Assembly (NCBI RefSeq): GCF_000341895.1
Contig: NC_020409.1
Coordinates: forward strand, 2,310,001-2,342,000
DNA length: 32,000 nt
DNA from: Pseudodesulfovibrio piezophilus C1TLV30
GTDB taxonomy: Bacteria > Desulfobacterota > Desulfovibrionia > Desulfovibrionales > Desulfovibrionaceae
Direction of reading: 5' to 3'
The notes beneath the pieces were generated by a model. It searched no databases, was not told the DNA's origin, and saw only the letters and a program-made list of their open reading frames with translations. Of the stretch, positions 2,012 to 16,448 are shown one piece after another. The position numbers were made by a program, and so were the translations under genes. Position 1 is the first letter of the stretch. Each line of letters begins with the position of its first letter.

Positions 2012-2568
2012 TGTGGCTCCACAATCAGGCTGAACGTAATGCCACCGAAGACTTCTTCCCGTTTTTCAAGGGAAAAAAGATAGTATTCATCGTTGGTCAG
2101 GTCGGAAATATACGTGTCAAACTCCTCGACATTCGGCCCGAAGAACCCTCGCGCCCTGGCCTTTTTCCCATCCAGCGTCAAGCCTTCCAGGCGGAGACTC
2201 TCCACTGCCGGGCGGCTCAGAGCTGCCAGAACGGAAACCGGGTCGAGACCGATGCGATTCGTGGCAGCGAGTTTTCCATAGGCAAATTGCAGCCTGCCAA
2301 AAGGAGAATTCCCGATATCCGGGCCAAGGACTGAAATATATAATTTGTCGGTCTCGTCCAATATCTGATTGAGTTGTTGCAGGTTGAAGCCGTACCGCAG
2401 GAGTTGTCCTGTCAGAAAAAAGCCGCAAATAACCACAACCCAGACCAGATTCTGAAGAAAACGTCTGGATGCGAGAGCCGACTCCCGACTCACCGTCCTG
2501 CCCGTGGATGTGGACGAAATCGGCTCCGAAGCCCTGTCTTGTATCTTTCCTGCCGTCATTCCGCCCAA
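2008..2568 (-). CDS. GspL C-terminal / PilN-like membrane protein
   Basis: 186 aa with a TM helix (LVWVVVICGFFLTGQLL) followed by a ~125-aa periplasmic domain. It is the first gene of a 3-gene overlapping set. The start is uncertain: 2568 is a TTG, an ATG lies at 2559, and neither has a clear SD. It lacks the cytoplasmic actin-like half of a full GspL. Confidence 0.4.
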   Translation of the reverse strand: MGGMTAGKIQDRASEPISSTSTGRTVSRESALASRRFLQNLVWVVVICGFFLTGQLLRYGFNLQQLNQILDETDKLYISVLGPDIGNSPFGRLQFAYGKLAATNRIGLDPVSVLAALSRPAVESLRLEGLTLDGKKARARGFFGPNVEEFDTYISDLTNDEYYLFSLEKREEVFGGITFSLIVEPQ

Positions 2569-2656
2569 ATACGCGAAACCGACAGTCGGGGCAAGCCTTG
2601 CACATCGTCACACACAGGTCATGCAGCGAACAAATGTGAGTGTGTATTGTCACTGC

Positions 2657-3289
2657 ATGAAGTGGAAATCCCTGCTCTGGCTCGAATTCCTGACCCTCTT
2701 TGGCGCTTTGCCCCTCGCCTATGCCCTGGGTCTGATCCCTCTGCCCAGAATCCCTATACTGTTGGTCATCTTCGCGGCCAGCCTGATTTATCTTGTACGA
2801 CACCCTGACTTCAATCACCGGGAACTGATACATGGGTTGCGCGGGCATTCAAGAGAAATTCGAAACATCTTCATCCGATCAGGCTGTGTCGCCGTCATCT
2901 GCATGGCTGCCGTCCTGATGATCGACCCATATCTGCTCTTTGGCTTTCCCCGAAGCCGTCCACTCTTGTGGCTCGGAGTAATGCTTCTGTATCCGCTCCT
3001 GTCCGCCTACCCGCAGGAGATCATCTACCGGGCATTTCTCTTCACCCGCTACAAATCCATTCTGCCGTCATCGTCGGTGATCCTCTGGGCCAGTACGCTG
3101 GCTTTCGCATTTCTGCATATCGTGTTCGCCAACTGGCTGGCTGTGGCATTCACCCTCCCGGCAGGATATATCTTCACGCGGACGTATGTCAGAACCGAAT
3201 CCCTGCTCCTGACATCCATGGAACACGCCCTGTACGGCTGTATTGTCTTTACCTCCGGCCTGGGCCGTTTCTTCTATACCCCATCATAA
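2657..3289 (+). CDS. CPBP-family (CAAX/Abi) intramembrane metalloprotease
   Basis: Track ORF 2504..3289 begins at a GTG and would run into the divergent gene. ATG 2657 (MKWKSLLWLEFLTLFGALPLAYALG) gives a 210-aa polytopic protein. Motifs seen: PQEIIYRAF (EExxxR-like), FAFLHIVF (FxxxH) and SMEHALYG (Hxxx). Confidence 0.7.
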   Translation: MKWKSLLWLEFLTLFGALPLAYALGLIPLPRIPILLVIFAASLIYLVRHPDFNHRELIHGLRGHSREIRNIFIRSGCVAVICMAAVLMIDPYLLFGFPRSRPLLWLGVMLLYPLLSAYPQEIIYRAFLFTRYKSILPSSSVILWASTLAFAFLHIVFANWLAVAFTLPAGYIFTRTYVRTESLLLTSMEHALYGCIVFTSGLGRFFYTPS

Positions 3290-3312
3290 AAAACCCCGGA
3301 GAGTTCCGGGGT
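3288..3312. terminator. Shared hairpin terminator between the convergent CPBP gene and the 11-gene operon
   Basis: The stem is ccccgga (3294..3300) paired with tccgggg (3305..3311), with a gagt loop. An A6 run on the plus strand precedes it, which reads as a T-run after the hairpin on the minus strand. That makes it a good rho-independent terminator for the minus-strand operon and a weaker one for the plus strand. Confidence 0.6.
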
Positions 3313-3347: not shown

Positions 3348-3788
3348 TTATTTATCCGATATTGTGAACGACCCTTTGGTCTTCTGCCCATCATCGTCCC
3401 AAAATATTTCAATTGAGCATTTGGCCTTGTCTTTCTTGCGACTCAGTTTCATTTCGAAAAAAACTTCCTCTGCCACACCGAGGCTGACGGTCTGTTCTCC
3501 ATCCCTGACCCTGATAAGCCCGCTTTCCAATGAGTGCGTCAAATCTTTGAGGTGGGTAACGACCTGCTCTATTCCCATGGTTTCCTTGATCTTGACCTTG
3601 GCCTTTTCCATTATTTTCTCCTTGTTGGCGGGACCGGAATCAGGTGGCAGAAAAAAACCGCCGTTTGCGACGACCGGAATCGGAGTGAGACCGGTCGTAT
3701 CGGTGATCGGGATCTCCACCGGTTTGGCAACGGCATTGGGATCAACCCAACTCAACGGATTGGCTCCGAGCCTCTTGTCACTACTCAT
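3348..3788 (-). CDS. amphi-Trp-domain protein with an N-terminal extension; candidate ParA partner
   Basis: Track ORF 3348..3929. I prefer the internal ATG at 3788 (MSSDKRLGANPLSWV...), which has GGGAG 5 nt upstream and overlaps the ParA stop by 8 nt (ATGAGTAG). The C-terminal ~70 aa (IEQVVTHLKDLTHSLESGLIRVRDGEQTVSLGVAEEVFFEMKLSRKKDKAKCSIEIFWDD) aligns by eye with the two other amphi-Trp ORFs, including the terminal Trp. Confidence 0.7.
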   Translation of the reverse strand: MSSDKRLGANPLSWVDPNAVAKPVEIPITDTTGLTPIPVVANGGFFLPPDSGPANKEKIMEKAKVKIKETMGIEQVVTHLKDLTHSLESGLIRVRDGEQTVSLGVAEEVFFEMKLSRKKDKAKCSIEIFWDDDGQKTKGSFTISDK

Positions 3789-4542
3789 GGGGTCTCCCTC
3801 GACGAAGCACTTCCAGAGCCAGGTTCCGATAGTCGGCGGCCCCATTGCTGCGTGGTTTGTAGGTGAATATGTCCTGCCCGAAACTCGGTGCTTCAGCCAG
3901 GGAGATGTTGTCGCGGATACTCGTTTCAAGAAGGTCGCCCTTGAAATAGTCCCGGATATTGCGTTGAATTTCTCGATTCAGTTTCTTCTGTCGCTGAAAT
4001 CGGGTCAGCACGATACCGGCCAGGGCAAGATGCGGATTCCACCCGGACCTGATGGCTCCCACGGTTTCCATCAGCTTGCCGAGACTTTGCAGGGCGAGAA
4101 ATTCGGGTTGAACCGGAACCAATAATTCGGTTCCCGCCACGAGCGCATTCAATGAAAGTAATCCGAGGTTCGGCGGACAATCCATGAGGCAGAAATCATA
4201 CCCCTCAACACCCTCAAGAGCCGCCTTGAGTCGGGTTTCACGATTCCCGACTCCAGCCAGCTCCACTTCGGTTCCGGCCAGGGCCACCGAAGCGGGAACA
4301 ACGTCCAGATCCCCAACCCTGCGAGCAACGTCGGCAAGGGCGCATTCGCCCGTCAGCACGGCTCCCATGGTGCGTGGTAACTCATGAGCCATGATCCCCA
4401 GTGAATACGTCAGATGCGCCTGGGGATCGAGATCGAGCAGAAGCACACGCTGCTTTTGCCGAGCAAGGCCAGCACCGAGATTGACCGTTGTCGAGGTCTT
4501 ACCGACCCCACCCTTCTGATTAAGAATGACGAGTGTTCGCAT
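3781..4542 (-). CDS. ParA/Soj/MinD-family P-loop ATPase (orphan, no ParB nearby)
   Basis: 253 aa. MRTLVILNQKGGVGKTSTTVNLG carries the deviant Walker A KGGxxGK[ST]. Also present are LLLDLDPQ, MDCPP (Walker B region) and a typical ParA C-terminal half. Confidence 0.9.
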   Translation of the reverse strand: MRTLVILNQKGGVGKTSTTVNLGAGLARQKQRVLLLDLDPQAHLTYSLGIMAHELPRTMGAVLTGECALADVARRVGDLDVVPASVALAGTEVELAGVGNRETRLKAALEGVEGYDFCLMDCPPNLGLLSLNALVAGTELLVPVQPEFLALQSLGKLMETVGAIRSGWNPHLALAGIVLTRFQRQKKLNREIQRNIRDYFKGDLLETSIRDNISLAEAPSFGQDIFTYKPRSNGAADYRNLALEVLRRGRPHE

Positions 4543-4579
4543 GGCGCTCCCGTGGACTCCTCTCCGACATTGCTCTTTC

Positions 4580-4759
4580 CTATTGGGTGACGAGAGCGAT
4601 CTTGCGAATCACGTATTCCCGTCCATGTTCATCCGTTACCTTGTTGATTCGCGAAAGTATTTTCTCCCGTTCTTCATCCTCCAGATTTTCCTCGTCACGA
4701 ATACAGAACAGGTCACAGACTTCCTTCCATTCGAAACTTCGCTTGGTTTCCTGAGTCAT
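4580..4759 (-). CDS. Small acidic hypothetical protein (59 aa), below the ORF-track length cutoff
   Basis: My translation is MTQETKRSFEWKEVCDLFCIRDEENLEDEEREKILSRINKVTDEHGREYVIRKIALVTQ*. A strong SD (GGAGGAAACA) sits immediately before the ATG at 4759. The ORF fills the otherwise empty 247-nt gap between two operon genes on the same strand. Confidence 0.6.
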   Translation of the reverse strand: MTQETKRSFEWKEVCDLFCIRDEENLEDEEREKILSRINKVTDEHGREYVIRKIALVTQ

Positions 4760-4789
4760 TGTTTCCTCCGGACGCGAACGTCCACATGT

Positions 4790-5296
4790 TCATTTTTTCG
4801 GCTTTGTGGCCGCAACGTGACGCGAAGCGGTCTTCTTGGCCGGAGATTTTTTGGCAGAAGCCTTTTTTTTCACGGTTTTCTTTTCTGCGGAAGGACCGGC
4901 AACCGGCGATGTCACTGCCGGCGGTTCGGCTGAGACCCTTTCGGCCGGGACCGCGCTCACCTTTTCCGCCGGAACAGCAGCAGGTTGAACGGCAGTCATC
5001 TCCGATCCCGGACTTGTGACCGGAGCCAGATCATCTTTAGGGATTGTATCGCCAATGACGAAATCACCATTGCTCCCCTCGGTCCATGTCAGCTCAAAAG
5101 AAAATTTCTGTTTGCCTTTCTTGACCTTGGCCTCAACTTCAATCCCCACGGTTTCCGCCGGAGTCAGGCTGACATGATCACCATCACGACTGACGACGAT
5201 AGTACCGGATTTGAAGCTCTCAAGCAGGGCCTCCATGTAGGCGACTGCCTCAGTGTAGGTCAGGGTCATCTTAACGTCGATTTTCTGCTTTTCCAT
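4790..5296 (-). CDS. amphi-Trp-domain protein with a Pro/Ala repeat linker and a Lys-rich histone-H1-like tail
   Basis: The N-terminal 73 aa (…AYMEALLESFKSGTIVVSRDGDHVSLTPAETVGIEVEAKVKKGKQKFSFELTWTE) are paralogous to 10182..10448. A tandem AVPAEKVS/AVPAERVS repeat follows (4931..4978). The tail is AEKKTVKKKASAKKSPAKKTASRHVAATKPKK (4793..4888). GAGGAAGG lies upstream of the ATG. Confidence 0.8.
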   Translation of the reverse strand: MEKQKIDVKMTLTYTEAVAYMEALLESFKSGTIVVSRDGDHVSLTPAETVGIEVEAKVKKGKQKFSFELTWTEGSNGDFVIGDTIPKDDLAPVTSPGSEMTAVQPAAVPAEKVSAVPAERVSAEPPAVTSPVAGPSAEKKTVKKKASAKKSPAKKTASRHVAATKPKK

Positions 5297-5324
5297 GGGA
5301 ATCCTTCCTCATCTGGTTGAAACG

Positions 5325-6509
5325 CTATGTCAGTGAGAGCAGCACCCGTGTCAGGTTGTGCTCGTCAATCAAGGGGCTGCTTGCCTCGGTTACCAGTGGA
5401 CAATCAATGACCTTCAATCCCATTGCCTCCAGTTCCCTGCGGCCAAGGCCACCCTGATAACGCCCCTGTTTCGTATCAACTACCACGAATTCGACACCGA
5501 CTCCATGCTCAGGCGCTCCACTTTGGTGCAGATACGTGTTGAGCAAAGCAGCCTGATCGGCCACACTCAACCCCTGCGCCTCTGGATCATTGCCGGTATT
5601 GGGAACAAAAACCTTGGGGCATGTATTGGCCGCGACTGCCTCTCCCACGCCATATGGCAGCAAATTGGCAACGACGCTGGAATAGAAGCTTCCAATAGGG
5701 TAGCAGATGAGGTCTGCCTCGGCGATACGCTCTTTGATCTTGTTGCGTACAGATGCCGTGACCGATTCCTGGCTGGTTAGGGAATCGGTCAACCAAATAT
5801 CACGGATGGGCGTGACGAGAGGAGCTGTCTCCTTGCCCGTAATGGCATGTTGGCCCACGATGACATTGCCATCCTCCAGCCGCACGGCCAGGTGCAAGTC
5901 CTTGTTGATCGTCGGCCGCACAATGCCACACACCTGCACCAGCTTGGAAAATATGTAGATGACCGGATCGAGCTGACGCCTGTTTTGCAGATACCCTGCC
6001 GTGAGCACTAGGTTGCCGATACTGGCTCCCTTGAGATCGAAATCTGTCGGCATGATATCCATGAACTGATGAAAATGATTTCGTATGATCTTGCGCATGG
6101 GATCGGGAATGGCACGCACCAGCGGATGTCTTCCCGCTGCCATGCTCTCCAGCTCGGCCTCCAGGTCGGCCTGTTTGGATTCTTTGGAAAGCCGATGGGC
6201 AAAGAGATCAAATATGGCGGGGTTGCCCTTCACTGATTGATCGGCCAAAGCCATGAGTCGATTGCGAATATCACCGACCGCAGGCATGCCGAACGCGCCC
6301 CGGATGACAGCTGAACTGCCCCCGGAATCAAAAGGGGTGATCAAGTGGATGGAATTATGGGTATAACAGATCAATTCGCGCGAAGTTTTGCGGAGGGCGG
6401 TTCCACCACTGAAAAAGAGAATCCTCGGTCCCAATTCCGGGGATTTTCGATATAATTCCAGCTTGAACGGGTCGGGGATTTCGACCTCTCTGGTAACGCT
6501 GATCCGCAT
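5325..6509 (-). CDS. CofD/YvcK-family protein (from memory, named 'GAK system CofD-like protein')
   Basis: 394 aa. ILFFSGGTALRKTSRELICYTHNSIHLITPFDSGGSSAVIRGAFGMPAVGDIRNRLMALAD matches the GGGTG…D(S/D)GGSSG…GDxRN core of the CofD/YvcK (UPF0052) family. GGGAG lies 5 nt upstream of the ATG. Confidence 0.8.
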   Translation of the reverse strand: MRISVTREVEIPDPFKLELYRKSPELGPRILFFSGGTALRKTSRELICYTHNSIHLITPFDSGGSSAVIRGAFGMPAVGDIRNRLMALADQSVKGNPAIFDLFAHRLSKESKQADLEAELESMAAGRHPLVRAIPDPMRKIIRNHFHQFMDIMPTDFDLKGASIGNLVLTAGYLQNRRQLDPVIYIFSKLVQVCGIVRPTINKDLHLAVRLEDGNVIVGQHAITGKETAPLVTPIRDIWLTDSLTSQESVTASVRNKIKERIAEADLICYPIGSFYSSVVANLLPYGVGEAVAANTCPKVFVPNTGNDPEAQGLSVADQAALLNTYLHQSGAPEHGVGVEFVVVDTKQGRYQGGLGRRELEAMGLKVIDCPLVTEASSPLIDEHNLTRVLLSLT

Positions 6510-6527
6510 GGCTACTCCCTGCCTATC

Positions 6528-7619
6528 TCAAGACAGTATGCCGGTTTCCATATACTTCAGACAGATATCAGCGGCCTTTTCAAAATCAACCCCTCCGGAA
6601 ATCTCGATAAGGTTTGTCCGGGAGAGCATGTCGGCATATGCCTCGATCCCCGGATCTTCCCGGCGGTCCGGATTTTGTGGCAGATAGAACAGGCCCGTCC
6701 CCTTCATGAAGGCAGGCAGCAGATCCTCACGGTCGTGGGGATCGACCAGTGCCACGCGCATATCACCGCCCTCCCGCTTCCAGTTGAGTATGACGAGAGC
6801 ATCCATGGTGCTTTTCAGGGAAAACCTGCCCGGACCGTAGCACTCATCAATAAGAGCATCATATTTATGCTCCAATTGCCACAAATCCTCCGTGGGCATG
6901 GCAAGGAACTCTTCACGGAGTTCAGATTCCACTATCCGGCTCAGGTCTGGATTATTCAAGGCGGTTCCAGGGTTGATCCGTGGTTGTTTGGCAACACCGA
7001 ACATGGTCAGTCCTTCACCGCTCTCCTCGACCATGATTCTGTCATTACTGACAAAAGTCGTGCCCTTGCTCATCAGATGCAGGGCCAATGTGGACTTCCC
7101 CGCACCGGAAAAACCAGCCAATGATATTCCGCGTTCATTGTGAATAACTCCGGCAGCATGCCCAAGAAACCCACCCATGTTGAGCTTCCACTCTATGAAT
7201 CTGTTGTTGATGAAGTTGATAACCTGGTTGGAATTGTCCAGGCAGGGACCTATGGCGCAATTTTCACCCTGACCAAAAATAAAATGCATGCCTGTTAGCC
7301 TCTTGCGGACAATTCTGCCGTCAGCCAGGTCCACCCATTCTTCCTTGATTTTGGTTTTTCCCGGATCCGGTGTTTTGACGGAAAAATCAAAATCAAGAGC
7401 CAGGGTATGACACTCGTGAGCAGAGACTGTAATCATCGCAGCCCCGGAAGTGGTGACAAACTCCTTGAAATAGTCAGCCAAGGCTTCATGCAAGGCCGCA
7501 GTGGAACTGTCCACCCGGATGAGACACCCGCCGAAATCGAGAAAAAGGGTATGCGTCGCCGGTATGTCATTCCTGATCCGGCCGACCAGCTCTTCTCTGG
7601 TGTTTCCTGTCAACTTCAT
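6528..7619 (-). CDS. HprK-related P-loop kinase
   Basis: Track ORF 6528..7625. ATG 7619 is preferred because GGAG sits 8 nt upstream and it forms an ATGA overlap with the ATP-grasp stop. ISLAGFSGAGKSTLALHLMSKGTTFVSNDRIMV resembles the HPr kinase/phosphorylase Walker A region plus the downstream (V/A)xDD-type motif. Confidence 0.7.
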   Translation of the reverse strand: MKLTGNTREELVGRIRNDIPATHTLFLDFGGCLIRVDSSTAALHEALADYFKEFVTTSGAAMITVSAHECHTLALDFDFSVKTPDPGKTKIKEEWVDLADGRIVRKRLTGMHFIFGQGENCAIGPCLDNSNQVINFINNRFIEWKLNMGGFLGHAAGVIHNERGISLAGFSGAGKSTLALHLMSKGTTFVSNDRIMVEESGEGLTMFGVAKQPRINPGTALNNPDLSRIVESELREEFLAMPTEDLWQLEHKYDALIDECYGPGRFSLKSTMDALVILNWKREGGDMRVALVDPHDREDLLPAFMKGTGLFYLPQNPDRREDPGIEAYADMLSRTNLIEISGGVDFEKAADICLKYMETGILS

Positions 7620-8488
7620 CTGCATTTCTCCATAACGTATTCAACATATCGCGCTGCGGCATCGATACCGCTGGTTTCCTGTATACCGCGAAATCCTCCG
7701 AAGGCAGAGACCTCGAAGACAAAAGGCCCGTCATCGGTGATGGCTACATCCACACAGGTAAAATCCAGGTTGAACCGGGATTGTGCCTTGCGGGCCAATT
7801 CGATGATATCCGGTGAAGGTTCATAGGAGCGGTATTTTCCACCGGATTCCGTGGTGGTATTCCACGCGCCATTGGTCTTGCACCGGGCATAAGTGGTCAG
7901 ATATTCGCCGCCAAGAAAAGCGATGCCAAGATCAAGATCGCCCAGTTCGATGGTCTTCTGGATGTACATGATCGGATTTTCCGCCTTGTATGCCTCAATG
8001 GCCTTGCGAGCCTCGGGACCATCCTTCAGTATGAACATTCCCCGCGCCTTGGAAGTGTAGAGCGGCTTGAAAACGGCCTCGCCATATTCTGCCATGGCAA
8101 CCAGCGCCTGATCCACACTTTCGGTTATGGTGGTGGGTGGCATGGGAATATCGGCCAGTTGCAGGGAGATGGTACAGCTCAACCGGTCGAGCACTCTGAG
8201 AATTGAATAGGCCGAGCTGAAAATCTTCAACCCGCGCTCCTGAAGATACCGGAGCACTTCCAATCTATCGAGCAGGTCCGGCGAGTACCTGGACCCTATT
8301 TTCTTGATGATCAGTGCGTCAAAGTCTCTCAGGTTGTGGCCGTTATAGTAGGCATTGCCTGAGGGAAGATCGAGACGGACATCTTCCATGCCGATAAGTA
8401 CACGTTCTTCGCCGGTCTTGTCGGCCACGGTATCGGCGAGCTTTTCCGACGACCAGCCGCCTTTGGTTCCGATGACTCCTATTTTCAC
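7616..8488 (-). CDS. RimK-type ATP-grasp ligase (from memory, named 'GAK system ATP-grasp enzyme')
   Basis: 290 aa with a GTG start and AAGGAG 7 nt upstream. Size and layout fit the RimK/CofF/MptN family: an N-terminal pre-ATP-grasp region, FKPLYTSKARGMFILKD (Lys loop), MYIQKTIE, and a C-terminal FVFEVSAFGGFRG (Mg-ATP site region). Confidence 0.75.
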   Translation of the reverse strand: MKIGVIGTKGGWSSEKLADTVADKTGEERVLIGMEDVRLDLPSGNAYYNGHNLRDFDALIIKKIGSRYSPDLLDRLEVLRYLQERGLKIFSSAYSILRVLDRLSCTISLQLADIPMPPTTITESVDQALVAMAEYGEAVFKPLYTSKARGMFILKDGPEARKAIEAYKAENPIMYIQKTIELGDLDLGIAFLGGEYLTTYARCKTNGAWNTTTESGGKYRSYEPSPDIIELARKAQSRFNLDFTCVDVAITDDGPFVFEVSAFGGFRGIQETSGIDAAARYVEYVMEKCR

Positions 8489-8524
8489 GAAATAACTCCT
8501 TGAAACTGGCTGATGCTGGTTGTT

Positions 8525-10177
8525 TTAAAAGTAAAGAACATCTTCGGGCAGAGAAAATTTTTCCCATGGCCCACCCTGATAATGGTGAATCTTTTCCAAC
8601 AGGAACATGGACCGGTTATACATTTCCTTGGCGAATTTGTAGTTCAGTTCGAACCGGGTGGAAGTGTAGAATGAACGGGCCAGGGCAAAGGCCATGCGCG
8701 CTTCAAAGGTGGCGTCCTCATGCTGCTGGGCGAATCCTTTGGCAAAGCGGTAGAACTGCCGAATGACATGATTGATACGACCACGATGTTCGGCATCAAA
8801 AACCGGCATACGAAAGTTCGAGATCAGAAAAACCGAAGCGTCCTGAATGTAGTCGAAATCACGCGACCGGTAGAGGTCTATATAATGCACTTGCTGAGCT
8901 TCATGATTGTAAACGACATTATTGATATTAAAATCGCCATGAATGAAGACTGAAAAAGGTGCTTCCAATTCGTTTTCTATCACCGCACAGTGCTTGAGCA
9001 GTTCCTCGGTGGATTCGACCTCGGAGCGACCGAGTGATTTGGGAGTCCGCCAGAATTCGGGGTGCGTTTGCAGCACCCCCTCCAATCGGGACTGGACCTG
9101 CCTGATATAGTTCGTCTTGATGGGGGTCGGGTCCAGTGTCTGAGTCCAGGTCTCCAAAACCGTTGACTCGAAAACGAACAAGGCATTGCGGGCAAATTCA
9201 TCCTCCCCTGAAAGGACTATCTCATCCAGGGTACACCCGTTGAGAAACTCGACCAGCATGGCCCCTTTGTCGCCATCTTCATGAAATCCGTAAATATCAG
9301 CCACCAGATTTGGGAACGTCTGTTTCCAGCGTTGAATCGATTCCCGTTCCTTGCGAATTTTTTCCAGGCTTCCTTCTTTGTAAATAGACCCCTGACGCAC
9401 ATCTTCAGCTCCCATCACATCATCACGCTGCTCAACCTTGCCGATGCGACACCCTGAGCGGGTCCCCCATATGGCCCTGAAATCGATATCCGCAAAAGAA
9501 TCGCTGAAGCCGGACTTGCTCAGGGTTTGCTGCAATGCGTCAAACTGTTCTATCTTGATACGCTCGCCCAGCAGGGAAAAAATGATCGCTTCACCAATGT
9601 TGAGCAGGGCGTCACCCACCCGCTCGAAATACCGGAAGATGAAAAGAACCGTGACCAGACTTTGAGCTTCCCGCCCCATGCCCATTTCATTCATCACACG
9701 ATCAAAACGGACCTTGTAGACCGAATCGAGCATGGGTTCGGACTTGCAGATAAAAAGAGCCTTGGACATGTCTTCCTCGTGATACGCCACCAAAATAATG
9801 GCCAATCGTTCGAGGATGATGTCAAAGACCTCGTTATAGTCATATTTCTGGATGAATGATTGCTCGTCGAGATATCTCATCTGCTTGACTATATTAACAA
9901 AATAGTCTGCTATCTTTTCCAGATTCACACACATGACCTGCATGGCGCGTATCTTGTTCAACTGATTCTTATCCAATGATTTATCCGAATGGATACGGGA
10001 ATAACATTTGTTTTCGATGATTGTTTTCAAATTATCGATGTAGTCATCGCGGGACGTGATCTTCGAGTGGCGTTTTCTGGTTGGGGAATCCATGAAGGCG
10101 CGGGTTGACCGGGCCTGATTTTCGACTTCAAGAACCATGAACTTGAAATTTTCGTCCAGTCCTTCAAAAGTAATCAT
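8525..10177 (-). CDS. Fusion protein: N-terminal PhoU-like repeat domain plus C-terminal APH/choline-kinase-type phosphotransferase
   Basis: 550 aa. PhoU-like signatures: SRDDYIDNLKTIIENKC, VNLEKIADYFVNI and FRYFERVGDALLNIGEAIIF. Kinase signatures: FIHGDFNINNVVY (HxDxxxxN catalytic loop) and VHYIDLYRSRDFDYIQD (metal-binding D). Confidence 0.7.
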   Translation of the reverse strand: MITFEGLDENFKFMVLEVENQARSTRAFMDSPTRKRHSKITSRDDYIDNLKTIIENKCYSRIHSDKSLDKNQLNKIRAMQVMCVNLEKIADYFVNIVKQMRYLDEQSFIQKYDYNEVFDIILERLAIILVAYHEEDMSKALFICKSEPMLDSVYKVRFDRVMNEMGMGREAQSLVTVLFIFRYFERVGDALLNIGEAIIFSLLGERIKIEQFDALQQTLSKSGFSDSFADIDFRAIWGTRSGCRIGKVEQRDDVMGAEDVRQGSIYKEGSLEKIRKERESIQRWKQTFPNLVADIYGFHEDGDKGAMLVEFLNGCTLDEIVLSGEDEFARNALFVFESTVLETWTQTLDPTPIKTNYIRQVQSRLEGVLQTHPEFWRTPKSLGRSEVESTEELLKHCAVIENELEAPFSVFIHGDFNINNVVYNHEAQQVHYIDLYRSRDFDYIQDASVFLISNFRMPVFDAEHRGRINHVIRQFYRFAKGFAQQHEDATFEARMAFALARSFYTSTRFELNYKFAKEMYNRSMFLLEKIHHYQGGPWEKFSLPEDVLYF

Positions 10178-10181
10178 CGTG

Positions 10182-10448
10182 TTAACTGACCTTCAAGGGT
10201 GTCTCGTTCACATCCCTGGTCCCGGTACAGTCCTTCCAGCTTACCCGAATGGACAACTTGGTCTCGGTCCCCTTTTTTTTGGCTTTGACAGTAAAATTGA
10301 GCAACCCCTCCGGCTTAAGCACAATAGCATCGCCATTGGTGGACAAGGTTATGCTCCCCTTGTCAAAACCATCGGTCAGGGACACCAGAAAATTCTTGAT
10401 GGTGTCGCAATCCTGCAACGAATCAAACACAAATTTTTCTTCTGACAT
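10182..10448 (-). CDS. amphi-Trp-domain protein (stand-alone, 88 aa)
   Basis: MSEEKFVFDSLQDCDTIKNFLVSLTDGFDKGSITLSTNGDAIVLKPEGLLNFTVKAKKKGTETKLSIRVSWKD… comprises an amphipathic helix, a beta hairpin, a Lys-rich turn and a strand ending in Trp. AAGGAGA lies 5 nt upstream of the ATG, and the stop lies 4 nt before the next gene. Confidence 0.8.
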   Translation of the reverse strand: MSEEKFVFDSLQDCDTIKNFLVSLTDGFDKGSITLSTNGDAIVLKPEGLLNFTVKAKKKGTETKLSIRVSWKDCTGTRDVNETPLKVS

Positions 10449-10467
10449 TCATCTCTCCTTGAAGAGG

Positions 10468-11631
10468 CTAGCCTGCGAGGCGTTCCTTGTATTCCTTGAT
10501 AATGGTCCGGCGACTGATGTTGTTGACTATGAGTCGCTTGCGGATACTCAGGTCATCCCATGCGGGCTGGAATCCTATCTCCCTGCCCGCCTTGGCACTA
10601 TCCTGCTGATTGACCGGCTTTGTCTTCTCGCCCATGTGACAATCGTCTCCCATGAAGATAAGCGTCTCGCGCTCGCCCCCTCGTCGCCTCTGATTCTGCT
10701 CATTGACCACGGAGATGAGAAATTCAGTATATTCCTGTGATTGAGGATTCCAGACCTCGATGCCGTCAACATCATAATTGCGTAACAGGATGGGCCAGAA
10801 TTCCTCGGGATGCGGAATGACCACGCACCCGCCAAGGGAACGGACTTCCTCGATCACTTCGCTGGCCCGGTAGAAAAAGGAAAGATTGAACTCGGCCTTG
10901 ACCAACTGCTTGACCGCTTTGAGATACGCCTGCACACGATTCACGGCGGTATCTCCAAGCTCCGGACGCATGGAATCAAACCAGTTCCGAAGCAACTTGT
11001 TTTTGACAGACATTCTCGGCACGTCTTTCCAATGATCATCAAGCATCCGCTCTATCTTGGCGACATTAATCCGAACAAACTCGATAAGCTCACGGTCTGC
11101 TCCCGTGGCCTTGGCCGCCTTGTGGAGACGTTCCTCGTGAGGTCTGGTAATAGTGTGCATAAACTCGAAGAGCTGACCTGATCTGTATTTGAACGTATGG
11201 GCCAGCATGGACTTGAGCACTCCGGCCTCCTGCACACGATCATTGGAAAAATGCAGCAGCAACTGCACTTTGCGGTTGAACCCGCTGGAATAGCAGTCCA
11301 CTTCCACGCCAGAGTAATCCCCCCAACTCATAAGCACATTGTGTTGTGTGGGGATCAGCAGTTCCTCCTTGCGATTGGGAAACATGGCGTCCACCCGTTT
11401 ACGGATGTATTCCATGGGGACAAACTCCGGATGCCAATGGGCAGCGAGAAGCGCCTCCTGCCGGACATACACATTGGAAGGCGTCACCACCTGCTCGATC
11501 TGCCATGGCTCCAAGTCCGTGGAAACCACGGCAAAGAACCGGGACTGATCGTCCTCGCTCACTTCTTCGGAGGCCACTCCAGGGAAAATCCGGCACTCCA
11601 CCTTTTCATCATCCTGCTTGATCAATTGCAT
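10468..11631 (-). CDS. PHP-domain-like phosphoesterase (tentative)
   Basis: Track ORF 10468..11640 begins at a GTG that overlaps the GGAAG SD. ATG 11631 sits 8 nt after that SD. PHP-like metal-ligand motifs: AAHWHPEF (HxH), VVIPHPEEFW…DGIEVWNPQS, and LIFMGDDCHMGEK (GxDxH). Confidence 0.5.
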   Translation of the reverse strand: MQLIKQDDEKVECRIFPGVASEEVSEDDQSRFFAVVSTDLEPWQIEQVVTPSNVYVRQEALLAAHWHPEFVPMEYIRKRVDAMFPNRKEELLIPTQHNVLMSWGDYSGVEVDCYSSGFNRKVQLLLHFSNDRVQEAGVLKSMLAHTFKYRSGQLFEFMHTITRPHEERLHKAAKATGADRELIEFVRINVAKIERMLDDHWKDVPRMSVKNKLLRNWFDSMRPELGDTAVNRVQAYLKAVKQLVKAEFNLSFFYRASEVIEEVRSLGGCVVIPHPEEFWPILLRNYDVDGIEVWNPQSQEYTEFLISVVNEQNQRRRGGERETLIFMGDDCHMGEKTKPVNQQDSAKAGREIGFQPAWDDLSIRKRLIVNNISRRTIIKEYKERLAG

Positions 11632-11655
11632 CGCCATCACTTCCGGTTGGGTATT

Positions 11656-12186
11656 TCAGTCATACTTGGCATGACAGCGACTCTTTTCATGAACGAGGAC
11701 ATCTATCGTCTCGTGCATTCTGCCCATGTCACCGGATTCATGCGCTTCACGAAATGCCTCACATGCTCTGGTATAGTCCTCATAATATTCATCACCATAG
11801 CCGGGATAGCTCACCATCAGGGCGGAATCCTCCAGAAATGAAACCACAGCTTCATCCGGTGGCATCTGCCCGTCATGAATCAACTTGACCAACATCCTGA
11901 AGCTCTGCTTCATCCGCTTCTTGAGGCTCTTGTATTTTGGCTTGGCGGGCGAACCGTCCGATTGCATACCATCGACATCAGGCACGCATTCCTTGCCCGA
12001 CTTGAATTTGCCTTTGACAGAGATCTTCCCGAATTCGTTCTTTCCGCTGATCTTGAATTTAATACAATCCTCGACACAGGGAAATTCATCGGAATTCCCT
12101 TGCTCCAGAGCATCAGCCAAATTCCGAAAAAAATCCGGTAATTCCTTGAGATCAATATATTTCACGATCTTCGATTCGTTTCCCAT
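11656..12186 (-). CDS. XXXCH-domain protein; first gene of the operon
   Basis: 176 aa. The C-terminus is …DMGRMHETIDVLVHEKSRCHAKYD (the xxxCH motif). The N-terminal ~60 aa (LPDFFRNLADALEQGNSDEFPCVEDCIKFKISGKNEFGKISVKGKFKSGKE) look like a Trp-less amphi-Trp fold. GGAG lies 8 nt upstream of the ATG. Confidence 0.7.
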   Translation of the reverse strand: MGNESKIVKYIDLKELPDFFRNLADALEQGNSDEFPCVEDCIKFKISGKNEFGKISVKGKFKSGKECVPDVDGMQSDGSPAKPKYKSLKKRMKQSFRMLVKLIHDGQMPPDEAVVSFLEDSALMVSYPGYGDEYYEDYTRACEAFREAHESGDMGRMHETIDVLVHEKSRCHAKYD

Positions 12187-12384
12187 GCTGTTCGCTCCAT
12201 TGTTGAGGGGAAGTCTGTCTCATACCATCGGCTTCCACCTGATCACAATAGAATAAGCAATATTGTAACAATTCTTCACACGGCGAAAACCTCGGAATCA
12301 AAGCCTCTTCAATAAATGGAACACATTCAGCCCCACCATCCGCACTTCCCAAACCCGGTCCCGGCTGATAGACATCTGCGTGAG
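12187..12384. promoter_or_regulatory. Divergent control region between the 11-gene operon and asnB
   Basis: 198-bp gap between divergent start codons. It contains three ACAAT/ATTGT half-sites: ACAAT 12245..12249, ATTGT 12262..12266 and ACAAT 12268..12272. The last two form the palindrome ATTGTAACAAT. No promoter hexamers could be assigned with confidence. Confidence 0.4.
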
Positions 12385-14346
12385 ATGTGCGGCATTACCG
12401 GTTTTATCAATCCAGCCATGATCGGCGACAAGCAGGGACTCCTGACCACGTCTGAAACCATGGCCAACACCCTGAACCACCGCGGCCCGGATGGCTCCGG
12501 TACATTTGCCGACGCGCAATTCGGTGTTGCCTTGGCCCATCGCCGCCTCGCCATCATCGACCTGACTGACTGCGGTGCCCAGCCCATGCGCAGTGTCGAT
12601 GGACGGTTGACCATTACTTTCAACGGCGAAATCTATAATTTTCAGGAAATTCGAACGGAACTGGAATCGGCAGGCGGCCCTTTCCTGCCCTGGCGGAGCA
12701 GTTCTGATACTGAGGTCATGCTTGCTGCCATACAGGTATGGGGTTTGGAAACAGCTCTGAGTCGTTTTGTCGGGATGTTCGCCTTTGCCCTCTGGGACCA
12801 GGATCAGCATGTTCTGCATCTTGCGCGGGACAGAATGGGAGAAAAACCCCTCTACTATGGCCGGGCCGGAAACAGTCTTGTTTTCGGCTCTGAACTCAAG
12901 GCTCTGCGGGCCTATCCCGGATTCTCGCCAGAACTCGATATGGAAGCCCTCTCTCTGTACCTACGCTTCCAGTATGTCCCGGAACCCCGCTCCATCTACA
13001 CAGGTGTTGCAAAACTTTCTCCCGGCCATCTGCTGACCGTTCATGCGGACGCGCTCCATGACCTGACCCCGGTCCCTTACTGGACCCTGAGCGAGACCGT
13101 GATCAACGCACAGGCTGCCCCTTTTTCAGGGACTGAGACTGAGGCCGCAGATCAGCTTGAAGGACTTTTGCGTTCGTCGGTTCGTAACCAGATGCTCGCG
13201 GATGTGCCATTGGGCGCACTCCTTTCCGGCGGTATCGATTCATCCCTGATCACCGCCCTCATGCAGCAGGAATCATGCCGCCCTATTCGCAGTTTCACCA
13301 TAGGATTCGACGATGCCGCCTATGACGAATCCGCCAGTGCCCGACAGATTGCCGCTCATATCGGCACAGACCATACCGAACTATTTGTCACCCCGGACCA
13401 TGTTCTCGATCTGATTGAGACCCTCCCCGATCTCTATGACGAACCCTTTTCCGACGCCTCCCAACTCCCCACCCATCTTGTGGCCCAAATCACACGAAAT
13501 CATGTCACGGTCTGCCTCACCGGAGATGGTGGAGACGAAGCCTTTGCCGGGTATAACCGACATTTTTGGGCACCGGCCATATGGAATAAAATCAGTCGGT
13601 TCCCGACAGGTCTTCGTTCTCTGACAGCCCGTGCACTTCAGCAGATTTCACCGGGAAGTTACGAAACGCTCTTTTCCGCCCTCGGACATCTACTCCCCAA
13701 GGCATCACGTGTCAGTACGCCGGGCCACAAACTCCACAAGCTCGCTGATATCCTCTCCATGGAGAGCCGAGAAGCCCTTTACAAGCAACTCTGCTCCACC
13801 TGGTCAGACCCTGCGAAACTGCTCGGAGTCCCGGAACCTTCCACAGATATCGACCTGCCCGATTCCTGGCCTCCCTTTGCCGATTATACACGCCAGATGC
13901 AGTATCTCGATACCATCACCTACCTGACGGGTGACATACTGCATAAGGTTGACCGCGCGACCATGGGAGTCTCTCTGGAATCGCGCGCGCCCTATCTCGA
14001 CCACAGGGTTCTTGAATTTGCATGGAGATTACCGGTCTCCATGCTGATCCGTAAAAAACAGGGGAAACATATTCTTCGGACCATCCTTGACCGATCTGTA
14101 CCGAAAGAACTGATGGACCGTCCCAAGATGGGCTTTGGAATTCCCATTGACAAATGGCTGCGCGGTCCTCTCAAGGAATGGGCTTATTCCCTGCTTGACC
14201 CAACACGACTTCGCCGACAGGGGATGCTCGATGTCGCTCTCATTACCCGACAACTCAACGAACATATGAGCGGTCAACGAGACAACCAGTACCGGCTCTG
14301 GAATATACTTATGCTTCAATCATGGCTGGACAGGTGGATGCATTGA
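12385..14346 (+). CDS. asnB: Asparagine synthase (glutamine-hydrolysing), class II amidotransferase
   Basis: Track ORF 12316..14346. The true start should be ATG 12385, giving MCGITGF… with the obligatory N-terminal Cys nucleophile. Also present are HRGPD, LAIIDL, the SGGIDSS PP-loop, and a typical AsnB C-terminal half. Confidence 0.9.
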   Translation: MCGITGFINPAMIGDKQGLLTTSETMANTLNHRGPDGSGTFADAQFGVALAHRRLAIIDLTDCGAQPMRSVDGRLTITFNGEIYNFQEIRTELESAGGPFLPWRSSSDTEVMLAAIQVWGLETALSRFVGMFAFALWDQDQHVLHLARDRMGEKPLYYGRAGNSLVFGSELKALRAYPGFSPELDMEALSLYLRFQYVPEPRSIYTGVAKLSPGHLLTVHADALHDLTPVPYWTLSETVINAQAAPFSGTETEAADQLEGLLRSSVRNQMLADVPLGALLSGGIDSSLITALMQQESCRPIRSFTIGFDDAAYDESASARQIAAHIGTDHTELFVTPDHVLDLIETLPDLYDEPFSDASQLPTHLVAQITRNHVTVCLTGDGGDEAFAGYNRHFWAPAIWNKISRFPTGLRSLTARALQQISPGSYETLFSALGHLLPKASRVSTPGHKLHKLADILSMESREALYKQLCSTWSDPAKLLGVPEPSTDIDLPDSWPPFADYTRQMQYLDTITYLTGDILHKVDRATMGVSLESRAPYLDHRVLEFAWRLPVSMLIRKKQGKHILRTILDRSVPKELMDRPKMGFGIPIDKWLRGPLKEWAYSLLDPTRLRRQGMLDVALITRQLNEHMSGQRDNQYRLWNILMLQSWLDRWMH

Positions 14347-14532: not shown

Positions 14533-15423
14533 TCACCCCTCTTCACCAGCCCAGACCGAGACAACGGATTCAGTCATGGCCCTGATAAGCGGATCTGTAG
14601 CGCGAGACTTCGGGGTAAGAAAGAAAAGGGTCAAGGAAAGCTCCGGCCCTGTCTCACAGATCACGGCCTGCCCGGAACGACACATTGCTTCAGCATCGCT
14701 CTCTTTGATAATGGAGAGGCCTTTCCCGGCCGCCACAAGTTCCCGGATGACACTTTCTGAATCCGCCTCAATGCTGTCGGAAAGAGATACCCCTGTGCCT
14801 GCAAACAGTTCATCGATGACCTTCATGAAAGGGCATTCGTCATTGGGCTTGACCCATGGCATGGCGGCAAGCTCCTCAATGGATTTCCCGTCAACCTGTT
14901 CAGCCCATGCGAGAGGGGCGATGATCCGGGCAGGAATTTTTTTCAAGGCAACGGCGACAACCTCCGGATAGGGGTTGTCGTAAAAGGAAAACCCCGCATC
15001 GATACGACGATCGCGAACATCCCTGAGAATATCGGCGGACATGCTCTGAAAGAGTTTGAGACGAAGTTTGGGATGAGCGACTGAAAGCGTTGTCACGAGT
15101 TGGGCTATGCGGAGAAAATCCGTATCCGTATTGAGCGCGATAACGAGATCGCCAGTCAACTCCTGACGATATATTTTGGCCTGGTTGAGCATGTCGTCGG
15201 CAGCTTGAAGAATCGAGTCTGCCTTGATCTTGAGACCCTGGCCCATTTCCGTCAGCTGCATACCATGTGGTGTACGGACAAAAAGAGGCAGACCAAGTTC
15301 TTCCTCCAGTGCCTTGATATGCGCTGAGACAGCCGGTTGGCTGGCGTGGATACGTGCCGAAGCCTTGGTCAGATTTCCAGCTTCGGCCACGGCTCTGAAT
15401 GACTTAAGTTGATACAGTTCCAT
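14533..15423 (-). CDS. LysR-family transcriptional regulator (downstream paralog)
   Basis: MELYQLKSFRAVAEAGNLTKASARIHASQPAVSAHIKALEEELGLPLFVRTPHGMQLTEMG is a LysR wHTH, followed by a substrate-binding domain. Starting at MELYQL (15423) gives a TGATG 1-nt overlap with the upstream LysR stop. The track start at 15435 (MESLMELYQL) is the alternative. Confidence 0.85.
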   Translation of the reverse strand: MELYQLKSFRAVAEAGNLTKASARIHASQPAVSAHIKALEEELGLPLFVRTPHGMQLTEMGQGLKIKADSILQAADDMLNQAKIYRQELTGDLVIALNTDTDFLRIAQLVTTLSVAHPKLRLKLFQSMSADILRDVRDRRIDAGFSFYDNPYPEVVAVALKKIPARIIAPLAWAEQVDGKSIEELAAMPWVKPNDECPFMKVIDELFAGTGVSLSDSIEADSESVIRELVAAGKGLSIIKESDAEAMCRSGQAVICETGPELSLTLFFLTPKSRATDPLIRAMTESVVSVWAGEEG

Positions 15424-16304
15424 CAAAGACTCCAAAGCTCACGCACCACATTGATCAGTGCTGCAATGGCCGGATCTTCCTCCTGAGCCTTGCGGTACAC
15501 GAAATTGAGTTCCACGGGATGGCGGCCCAGTGAGGTGCACACAGCACAGTGCCCGGACTCCAGAAGACTGGCCACCTCATCATCACGGACAAGAGCAAGG
15601 GCTTTCCCCTGAACCACCAGAGGCCGGATGACTTCTTCGGAATCCGCACCAATGGTCTGTGCAGGTGTGATGGCGTGATCCTTGAATATTTTCAGTTGCA
15701 ATTCCCGAAAAGGACAATGACTGGTGGGCATGACCCAGGTAAATTCCGACAGAGATGTTGCATTGGCCGAAGCAAGGCGATCCTGCCACTGTGCCGCACC
15801 CACAATGAAATATTCCGGTTCAGCCAGTTTTATAGCCTGGATATCCCCATAGGGATTGCCGGAGAAGACAAAAGCGGCATCAATATTCTTGGCCCGCAAC
15901 TCCGTCAGAATGACCCCGGAGGGTGACTGAACAAGCTTGAGATTGAGCTTGGGAAACCGCTCACTCATATACTCAAGCAGGGCGGTGACATTGAGATAAG
16001 TTGGGTCCGTACACAGACCTATACTTATTTTTCCGGCTATTTCACCGTGCAAAGTCACTGCTTTGGCCTGAAGTTTTTCCGCAGCAGCGAGAACTTCAAT
16101 AGCGTCCACTATAAGCTCACTTCCGGCTACCGTGAGTTCGACACCACGGGGAGTACGATCAAAAAGGCGTACACCGAGTTCTTCCTCCAATGCCTTGATA
16201 TGGGCTGAAATAGCGGGCTGAGTGGCATGAACACGTTTTCCGGCACGAGTGAAGTTTCCTTCCTCAGCCACGGCAACGAGTGTTCTCAATTGGTAGAGTT
16301 CCAT
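15423..16304 (-). CDS. LysR-family transcriptional regulator (upstream paralog)
   Basis: Track ORF 15423..16364. I prefer ATG 16304, MELYQLRTLVAVAEEGNFTRAGKRVHATQPAISAHIKALEEELGVRLFDRTPRGVELTVAG, because LysR proteins begin directly with the HTH. Confidence 0.85.
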   Translation of the reverse strand: MELYQLRTLVAVAEEGNFTRAGKRVHATQPAISAHIKALEEELGVRLFDRTPRGVELTVAGSELIVDAIEVLAAAEKLQAKAVTLHGEIAGKISIGLCTDPTYLNVTALLEYMSERFPKLNLKLVQSPSGVILTELRAKNIDAAFVFSGNPYGDIQAIKLAEPEYFIVGAAQWQDRLASANATSLSEFTWVMPTSHCPFRELQLKIFKDHAITPAQTIGADSEEVIRPLVVQGKALALVRDDEVASLLESGHCAVCTSLGRHPVELNFVYRKAQEEDPAIAALINVVRELWSL

Positions 16305-16448
16305 GGGAAAAACCTTTCCATTCAGGTTCGGGGAGCAATCGGAATTTCTTATGACAGCCCTCACGCATTGTTATTGGACCGTGACACCGCTGATATGTAT
16401 TAGACTGGTGATCTTGTCGACATAAGGGCAAACCAAAGGAGAATGACC

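Follow-up and report, generated by a model that had tools for sequence, protein, structure and literature searches.

Why should one bacterial operon encode the same small domain three or four times, spread between its enzyme genes and each time equipped differently? The question is raised by a stretch of 32,000 nucleotides (positions 2,310,001 to 2,342,000 of contig NC_020409.1, called the window below), whose operon belongs, with near certainty, to a Pseudodesulfovibrio-like sulfate reducer. A preliminary description of this DNA had proposed that three small open reading frames (ORFs), which we call G1 (10182-10448), G2 (4790-5296) and G3 (3348-3788), are paralogs sharing a module that ends in a conserved Trp, and that the N-terminal half of the product of 11656-12186, the XXXCH protein, has the same layout without the Trp. 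All four ORFs are present at these positions on the minus strand, and the peptide strings quoted for them are exact. We are nearly certain that G1, G2 and G3 are paralogous members of the catalogued amphi-Trp family (TIGR04354, PF20068) within a canonical operon of the GAK system, a name that pairs an ATP-grasp enzyme, an amphipathic protein and a kinase. The paralogy had been seen correctly, but its treatment as a discovery does not stand, as the family is already held in NCBIfam and Pfam, its neighbourhood is already named the GAK system and orthologs in public databases already bear amphi-Trp or GAK names. The family, its defining features and its GAK neighbourhood are thus a rediscovery; what is added here are three positional lineages, a cryptic Trp-less relative in the XXXCH protein, a strand beyond the Trp, a ParA-coupled lineage, the absence of a solved structural relative and a cytochrome c'-like prediction for the XXXCH protein.

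Membership in the family follows from the curated hidden Markov models (HMMs). All three proteins exceed the curated TIGR04354 cut-off of 31 bits, by up to about twofold (Table 1), and with PF20068, whose gathering score is 27, G1, G2 and G3 reach 29.0, 32.2 and 38.5 bits. BLASTP aligns the 88-residue G1 protein with the 168-residue G2 protein at E 2e-8 and the latter with the 146-residue G3 protein at E 4e-13, and profile-profile comparison (HHalign) gives probabilities of 99.2% for G1 and G2, 96.9% for G1 and G3, and 99.7% for G2 and G3. A sceptic might still ascribe the resemblance to chance, to a generic helix-plus-hairpin pattern or an effect of composition, with no true paralogy behind it: the G1-G3 pair is not significant by BLASTP alone, and the amphi-Trp profile finds, among PDB sequences, weak matches to de novo designed immunoglobulin domains, which are chance matches only. 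We give this explanation practically no credence, for it is refuted by the curated HMM scores and by HHalign probabilities of 96.9-99.7% among the lineages, against no more than 0.9% for shuffled XXXCH N-half profiles; positional orthology kept in about 70 loci speaks against it as well. The setting is equally clear: matches to TIGR04356, TIGR04355, TIGR04357, TIGR04358 and amphi-Trp, which together define the GAK system, all lie above their cut-offs on one strand within 3348-12186.

Positional lineages of the amphi-Trp domain

Related loci were found by alignment of the HprK-related kinase B of the operon, which has relatives at 460 places in genomes from 185,579 species; of these loci the best 80 were taken and, together with the window, make up the 81 sources counted below, in which amphi-Trp ORFs were collected with an HMM iterated on all ORFs of the loci. 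These best 80 loci come almost entirely from Desulfobacterota, with one from SAR324. They and the window yielded 127 amphi-Trp ORFs, spread over 72 sources (71 loci and the window), with one copy in 25, two in 39 and three in 8, and the gene order XXXCH, 390-residue protein, G1, PhoU-kinase, ATP-grasp enzyme, HprK-related kinase B, CofD-like protein, G2 and, where present, ParA with G3 is kept over about 70 of the loci. The view that the copies are interspersed among the enzyme genes is borne out, each holding a fixed position in this layout, and so is the view that each carries its own appendage: none in G1, a long charged tail in G2, an N-terminal peptide beside a ParA gene in G3 and a helical domain in the XXXCH protein.

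G1 is the nearly universal copy, a bare domain of about 88-95 residues that stands between the genes for the 390-residue protein and the PhoU-kinase in 68 sources (67 loci and the window), with the PhoU-kinase start at a median of 5 nucleotides past its stop. Fifty-five orthologs, the window's own protein excluded, are 57-75% identical to it, and those named in their source are called 'amphi-Trp domain-containing protein'. Peculiar to this lineage is an N-terminal motif, F-x-[FYH]-[DE]-S-h-Q-D, whose Ser is present in 67 of 68 sequences and which takes the form F-x-F-[DE]-S-h-Q-D in the window copy. Of the 68 proteins, 45 end in Ser or Thr (S in 37, T in 8), and the remainder in A (5), R (4), E (3) and others.

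In 44 loci G2 comes after the CofD-like gene; 7 more have similar copies elsewhere. Its domain is succeeded by a strand of the 'LKISxxEP' type and then by a low-complexity tail of 15-144 residues, which in the window ends in a basic stretch rich in Lys, Ala and Pro and has a net charge of +8; among 48 tails of this type the net charge is at least +3 in 17 and at most -3 in 21. One locus contains two adjacent G2-type genes (L061, 11160-11915) and a 137-residue protein, P0334, holds two amphi-Trp domains, which show ongoing duplication of the module.

G3 is confined to 8 Pseudodesulfovibrio-related sources, where it always stands directly after the gene for a Soj-type ParA ATPase. ParA itself, an accessory gene of this type of locus, occurs in 8 of the 81 sources, each time with G3, and G3 occurs only where ParA does (8 of 8). 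The ParA stop overlaps the G3 start, at a median spacing of -4 nucleotides and by 8 nucleotides in the window, and the two genes are translationally coupled. This overlap depends on the ATG at 3788 as the G3 start, rather than the TTG at 3929 chosen by the ORF-calling tool, and the former, already preferred in the preliminary description, is upheld by all eight orthologs, which begin with the conserved sequence MS-DKRLGANPL-WV. The protein consists of an N-terminal peptide, MSSDKRLGANPLSWV (about 3744-3788), a linker rich in Pro and Ala, and the amphi-Trp domain. The peptide had been labelled ParA-type; its place beside ParA stands, and the label is better given as ParB/Spo0J-like and ParA-directed, because it resembles the ParA-stimulating N-terminal peptide of Spo0J/ParB, which in Spo0J reads K-R-G-L-G-R-G-L-x-A-L-L. 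A PDB search with the peptide returned nothing. As to ancestry, G2 and G3 are nearest each other by BLASTP as well as by HHalign, which suggests that G3 was derived from G2.

Predicted fold, conservation and the XXXCH protein

The AlphaFold model of the G1 protein (predicted local distance difference test, pLDDT, 86.1) contains a helix at residues 14-30 and strands at 33-37, 40-44, 49-59 and 62-72, the last of which has W71 at its end. The amphi-Trp fold is predicted to comprise about 85 residues, with an N-terminal strand-like segment, a four-stranded antiparallel sheet and, packed against one of its faces, an amphipathic helix. Foldseek found nothing with E below 0.28 for this model in PDB or BFVD, and a cystatin-like topology was considered and set aside at a template modelling (TM) score of only about 0.25. 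In an alignment of 277 domains the Trp, whose conservation had been noted beforehand, is present in approximately 100%, P46 in 90%, K59 (tip of the long hairpin) in 89% and K64 in 78%, and L21 and L24 of the helix and the turn residue G31 are conserved at 83-84%. The final strand interleaves L65, I67, V69 and W71 with S66, R68, S70 and K72; since W71 shares the strand face of L65, I67 and V69 both in the sequence pattern and in the model, it probably points to the hydrophobic, helix-facing side as a core residue packing against the helix rather than as a functional handle. Such core packing would account for the amphipathic helix and for the invariance of the Trp alike.

This arrangement bears on the idea that the amphi-Trp proteins associate with the inner membrane through the helix and recruit the GAK enzymes to it. 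The helix is clearly amphipathic in the family name and in sequence, with I17, F20, L21, L24 and F28 on one face, but in the confident model it forms part of a compact domain beside the sheet, which already explains its amphipathicity, and the proteins are rich in charged residues and have no signal peptide or transmembrane segment. We hold membrane recruitment to be very unlikely.

The opposite face of the sheet and the long hairpin would carry a cluster of conserved Lys residues (K55, K57, K58, K59 and K64), on which a different explanation might be founded, namely that the domain is an anion-binding structural protein whose Lys hairpin and basic face bind nucleic acid, polyphosphate or a phosphorylated metabolite, as part of a granule or in association with the nucleoid, with ParA positioning the cargo. 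Besides the conservation of K59 and K64, many G2 tails resemble histone H1 in their Lys, Ala and Pro content, the operon encodes a PhoU domain, one family member is highly abundant in a proteome (see below) and G3 is coupled to a ParA of the nucleoid-working Soj type. The tails, however, are acidic about as often as they are basic, no fold that binds nucleic acid or polyphosphate was matched, and most loci lack ParA; on balance we think this explanation improbable.

The module, contrary to what had been supposed, extends beyond the Trp. Of 124 proteins, 118 have a conserved mini-strand of the form hydrophobic-x-hydrophobic 10-14 residues past the Trp, where shuffled tails would lead one to expect about 38. 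The confidence of this strand is low in the monomer model, and we regard it as a candidate for strand donation between subunits. A profile search run on 1.84 billion cluster representatives returned 1,681 amphi-Trp clusters (50% identity) at E of 0.001 or less, and the 150 best cluster matches are mostly proteins of 80-100 residues, some with charged N- or C-terminal extensions or a tandem duplication.

The XXXCH protein stands further off. Its N-terminal half is missed by BLASTP and by TIGR04354 and PF20068, even at E values up to 10, yet an HHalign comparison of a profile built from 167 of its homologs with one built from 127 amphi-Trp domains gives a probability of 94.7% (E 5.6e-8, 66 columns), against at most 0.9% for 30 column shuffles, 15% for the reversed profile and 1.1% for the XXXCH C-terminal half; compared with the lineages separately it reaches 88-97%. 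Over all copies, then, HHalign probabilities run from 88 to 99.7%, in favour of homology. The AlphaFold model (pLDDT 79.8) has a strand at 4-11 and a helix at 13-29, then a first hairpin reduced to a vestige and a long one at 41-51/54-63, so that helix, small hairpin and long hairpin succeed one another as in the G1 model. The two outcomes named beforehand as refuting the resemblance, a non-significant HHalign score and unrelated folds, thus did not occur. The preliminary claim of a common layout without the Trp thus holds as distant homology and fails as family membership: the N-terminal half is a degenerate relative and not an amphi-Trp member.

The remainder of the XXXCH protein forms a head of four modelled helices (85-104, 111-125, 135-151 and 154-175), for which the best Foldseek matches in the PDB are cytochromes c' (1cgn, E 0.015, probability 1.00, TM score 0.61 on the target), and we predict a cytochrome c'-like four-helix bundle. 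A profile of the XXXCH alignment found no cytochrome at the sequence level in the PDB. Of 170 homologs, 167 stop exactly four residues past the Cys-His, as C-H-[AD]-[KR]-Y-[DK]. A paralog 50% identical to the window protein (P0162) lies on metagenome contigs (L081, 10001-11699) directly after the gene for a GAF-domain sigma-54 activator, where it and a second CofD-like gene, 8 nucleotides downstream, make up a minimal pair that has no other GAK component nearby.

Operon enzymes and neighbouring genes

The operon is a single, tightly packed unit on the minus strand, running from 12186 down to 3348 in the order given above with both ParA and G3 present (Table 1). The PhoU-kinase also resembles PF01636, at 20.9 bits, under the cut-off of 23.2. 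By the NCBIfam scan the ATP-grasp enzyme is closest to the glutamate ligases of the MptN, RimK, CofF and LysX type, with weaker scores for the RimK family (103 bits), LysX (76 bits) and a maturase model for peptides that are ribosomally synthesized and then modified after translation (RiPPs; 22 bits), and the transferase is CofD/YvcK-like. Eight loci (L011-L013, L015, L017, L019, L020 and L025, mostly Maridesulfovibrio) have a second CofD-like gene on the opposite strand just past the GAK operon.

Table 1. Features of the GAK operon in the window (coordinates in nucleotides of the window)
Feature	Position	Strand	Remarks
XXXCH protein	11656-12186	-	First gene of the operon
Degenerate amphi-Trp-like N-domain of the XXXCH protein, residues ~1-63	11998-12186	-	No Trp; first hairpin reduced
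XXXCH domain, residues 85-174	11665-11934	-	TIGR04358 104.8 bits; predicted four-helix bundle
390-residue GAK-locus protein, no family assignment	10468-11640	-	Between the XXXCH and G1 genes in nearly all loci
G1, bare amphi-Trp, 88 residues	10182-10448	-	Directly upstream of the PhoU-kinase; TIGR04354 68.1 bits
PhoU-domain and APH/EcKL-like kinase fusion, 550 residues	8525-10177	-	PF01895 58 bits; PF02958 28.8 bits
GAK system ATP-grasp enzyme, RimK/MptN-like	7616-8488	-	TIGR04356 449.9 bits; MptN 143.6 bits
HprK-related kinase B	6528-7625	-	TIGR04355 550.2 bits
GAK system CofD-like protein	5325-6509	-	TIGR04357 548.1 bits; PF01933 138 bits
G2, amphi-Trp residues 1-78 (~5063-5296) and 90-residue disordered tail	4790-5296	-	Directly after the CofD-like gene; TIGR04354 66.8 bits
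Soj-type ParA ATPase	3781-4542	-	PF13614 161 bits; PDB 8ray E 9.7e-54; Thermus Soj 1wcv E 2.9e-50
G3, ParA-coupled amphi-Trp, 146 residues	3348-3788	-	TIGR04354 48.5 bits; amphi-Trp domain ~3378-3611
Terminator-like GC hairpin and T-run	3293-3312	-	8-bp stem with 6 GC pairs, then TTTTTAT; consensus match only

The 390-residue protein, kept in nearly every GAK locus, is an unnamed core GAK component: it has no sequence match in NCBIfam, Pfam or the PDB, and no GAK model of NCBIfam covers it. A guess that it is a PHP-type phosphoesterase found no support in those searches and was dropped. The terminator-like hairpin lies 36 nucleotides beyond the G3 stop and is likely to mark the end of the operon. 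Gaps within the operon are 36 nucleotides or less, except for 247 non-coding nucleotides between the G2 and ParA genes (4543-4789), a spacing that is alike in related loci (median 233 nucleotides, n=8) and that shows neither an Rfam match nor a convincing consensus for a promoter or terminator. Rfam gave no match across the whole window, a scan for sigma-54 promoters stayed below the number of matches expected by chance, with none located upstream of the operon, and PADLOC gave none on the locus, which is therefore not a known defence system.

Around the operon lie a CPBP/Rce1-like intramembrane protease (2504-3289, plus strand; PF02517), a divergently transcribed glutamine-dependent asparagine synthase (12316-14346, plus strand; PF00733, 367 bits) and a LysR-type regulator (14533-15435, minus strand; PF03466, PF00126). 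Adjoining the last is a 313-residue ORF (15423-16364, minus strand) whose sequence looks like that of a second LysR regulator, and at 758-2568 on the minus strand three consecutive ORFs of 250, 165 and 186 residues have no Pfam match and resemble small membrane-anchored proteins.

A putative assembly role and its comparison with known systems

What, then, might the repeated domain do? With a CofD-like transferase, an MptN/RimK-like ligase and two kinases, the GAK enzymes point to a small-molecule pathway in preference to protein tailoring. A conserved acidic C-terminus such as RimK and LysX use is absent from every protein of the locus (the XXXCH protein ends in D or K), and for this reason we favour small-molecule chemistry together with a non-catalytic role for amphi-Trp. 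We propose, with a probability that we put at roughly 0.4, that amphi-Trp is an assembly or adaptor module which joins differently equipped small subunits into one GAK complex. This proposal rests on a conserved domain with differing appendages, fixed positions in the operon, the link to ParA and an abundant family member, an amphi-Trp protein that a table places in the top 20 of Dissulfuribacter thermophilus proteins by abundance (PMC13490349); abundance of this order fits a stoichiometric, structural role. Under the proposal, the ParB-like N-terminal peptide of G3 would link the complex to the Soj-type ParA, the contribution of G2 would be its long, charged and disordered tail, and the XXXCH protein, through its degenerate copy of the module, would bring in a helical bundle of the cytochrome c' kind. 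G1, bare, universal and marked by a lineage-specific Ser motif, would be the foremost candidate for regulation by the kinases of the locus. The suggestion in the preliminary description of a docking or substrate module wearing different heads would fit this anatomy.

Several observations weigh against an assembly role. The searched literature holds no interaction, localisation or modification data on amphi-Trp or GAK proteins; indeed, searches on amphi-Trp, the GAK system, XXXCH and HprK-related kinase gave nothing functional beyond the single proteomics table entry. No solved analogue that could anchor a function emerged from Foldseek. Since the genes are tightly spaced throughout the operon, adjacency does not mark specific partners, and we rejected the assignment of one partner to each paralog on that basis. 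The ParA-G3 pair occurs only in a narrow, Pseudodesulfovibrio-related subset, and ParA positioning therefore cannot be the general role of the family. Finally, the Ser motif and frequent C-terminal Ser of G1 fit a substrate at least as well as an adaptor.

This last observation leads to the most serious alternative, that amphi-Trp proteins, G1 above all, are substrates or carriers, phosphorylated by the HprK-related kinase B or by the PhoU/APH kinase so that the CofD-like and ATP-grasp enzymes then build on the phosphate. We consider such a function possible, if on the doubtful side. It would suit the name of the system, with its pairing of ATP-grasp enzyme, amphipathic protein and kinase. It would also make sense of the near-invariant motif Ser, of the terminal Ser or Thr found in most G1 sequences and of the conserved K59 at the hairpin tip, and it has a precedent in HPr-kinase homologues, which phosphorylate the C-terminal Ser of lasso-peptide precursors (PMC8498205). 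The C-terminal residue nevertheless varies, to R, K, E, D or G in close relatives, G2 and G3 lack the Ser motif, the ATP-grasp enzyme is nearest to cofactor and C-terminal glutamate ligases in a locus that offers no conserved acidic C-terminus, and three or four paralogs with different heads are left unexplained. The substrate and adaptor models are not mutually exclusive. A precursor of the graspetide or RiPP kind was rejected in view of the C-termini, of the confident folded model (pLDDT 86) and of the ATP-grasp enzyme itself, which scores 449.9 bits with the GAK model and 143.6 with MptN against 22 with the RiPP maturase model.

The assembly proposal also admits a bolder extension, which we regard as a long shot. 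The amphi-Trp domains may co-assemble into a cytoplasmic body or metabolon holding the GAK enzymes, with G1 as its bulk subunit, G2 tails tethering it to the nucleoid or driving condensation, G3 handing it to the Soj-like ParA for positioning and inheritance, and the XXXCH protein serving as a heme-based redox or gas sensor. If true, such a body would be a new class of ParA-positioned cargo in sulfate reducers, built from a fold without a solved relative. The interest of the locus rests on a system that is widespread and named yet has no experimental function, and should the module be shown to be an assembly domain, it would offer an entry point into an uncharacterised multi-enzyme system widespread among sulfate-reducing bacteria. 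The comparison made here supplies sharper handles for that purpose, in a universal G1 with its specific residues, a module shared by the XXXCH protein, one lineage wired to ParA and a head predicted to be cytochrome c'-like.

Set beside known systems, the locus resembles several in part. Like ParB/Spo0J and the partners of the McdB type, G3 stands directly after a Soj-like ParA gene, is inherited with it and begins with a conserved basic peptide, D-K-R-L-G-x-N-P-L-x-W-V; unlike them it has neither the helix-turn-helix or CTPase domain of ParB nor an McdB-like sequence, and its putative cargo-binding part is the amphi-Trp domain. The LysW and ArgW carriers, which work with LysX, share with amphi-Trp the setting of a small protein beside a RimK-family ATP-grasp ligase and a kinase. 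Amphi-Trp is nonetheless not a member of that group, having no zinc ribbon, a different predicted fold, variable G2 tails and no conserved acidic C-terminus among the 68 G1 sequences, and we rejected a LysW-type carrier on the C-termini and the fold. Among the class II cytochromes (c', b562) it is on cytochromes c' that the predicted XXXCH bundle superposes, with its Cys-His at the end of the last helix, where the heme-binding CXXCH of this class sits; it differs from them in lacking the first Cys of CXXCH and any evident signal peptide, which would place it in the cytoplasm, and it may be a cytoplasmic single-Cys heme protein. With the amphi-Trp/GAK system, in contrast, the agreement is complete: the three copies in the window are members that differ in nothing from it, and every named component of the system is present in canonical order.

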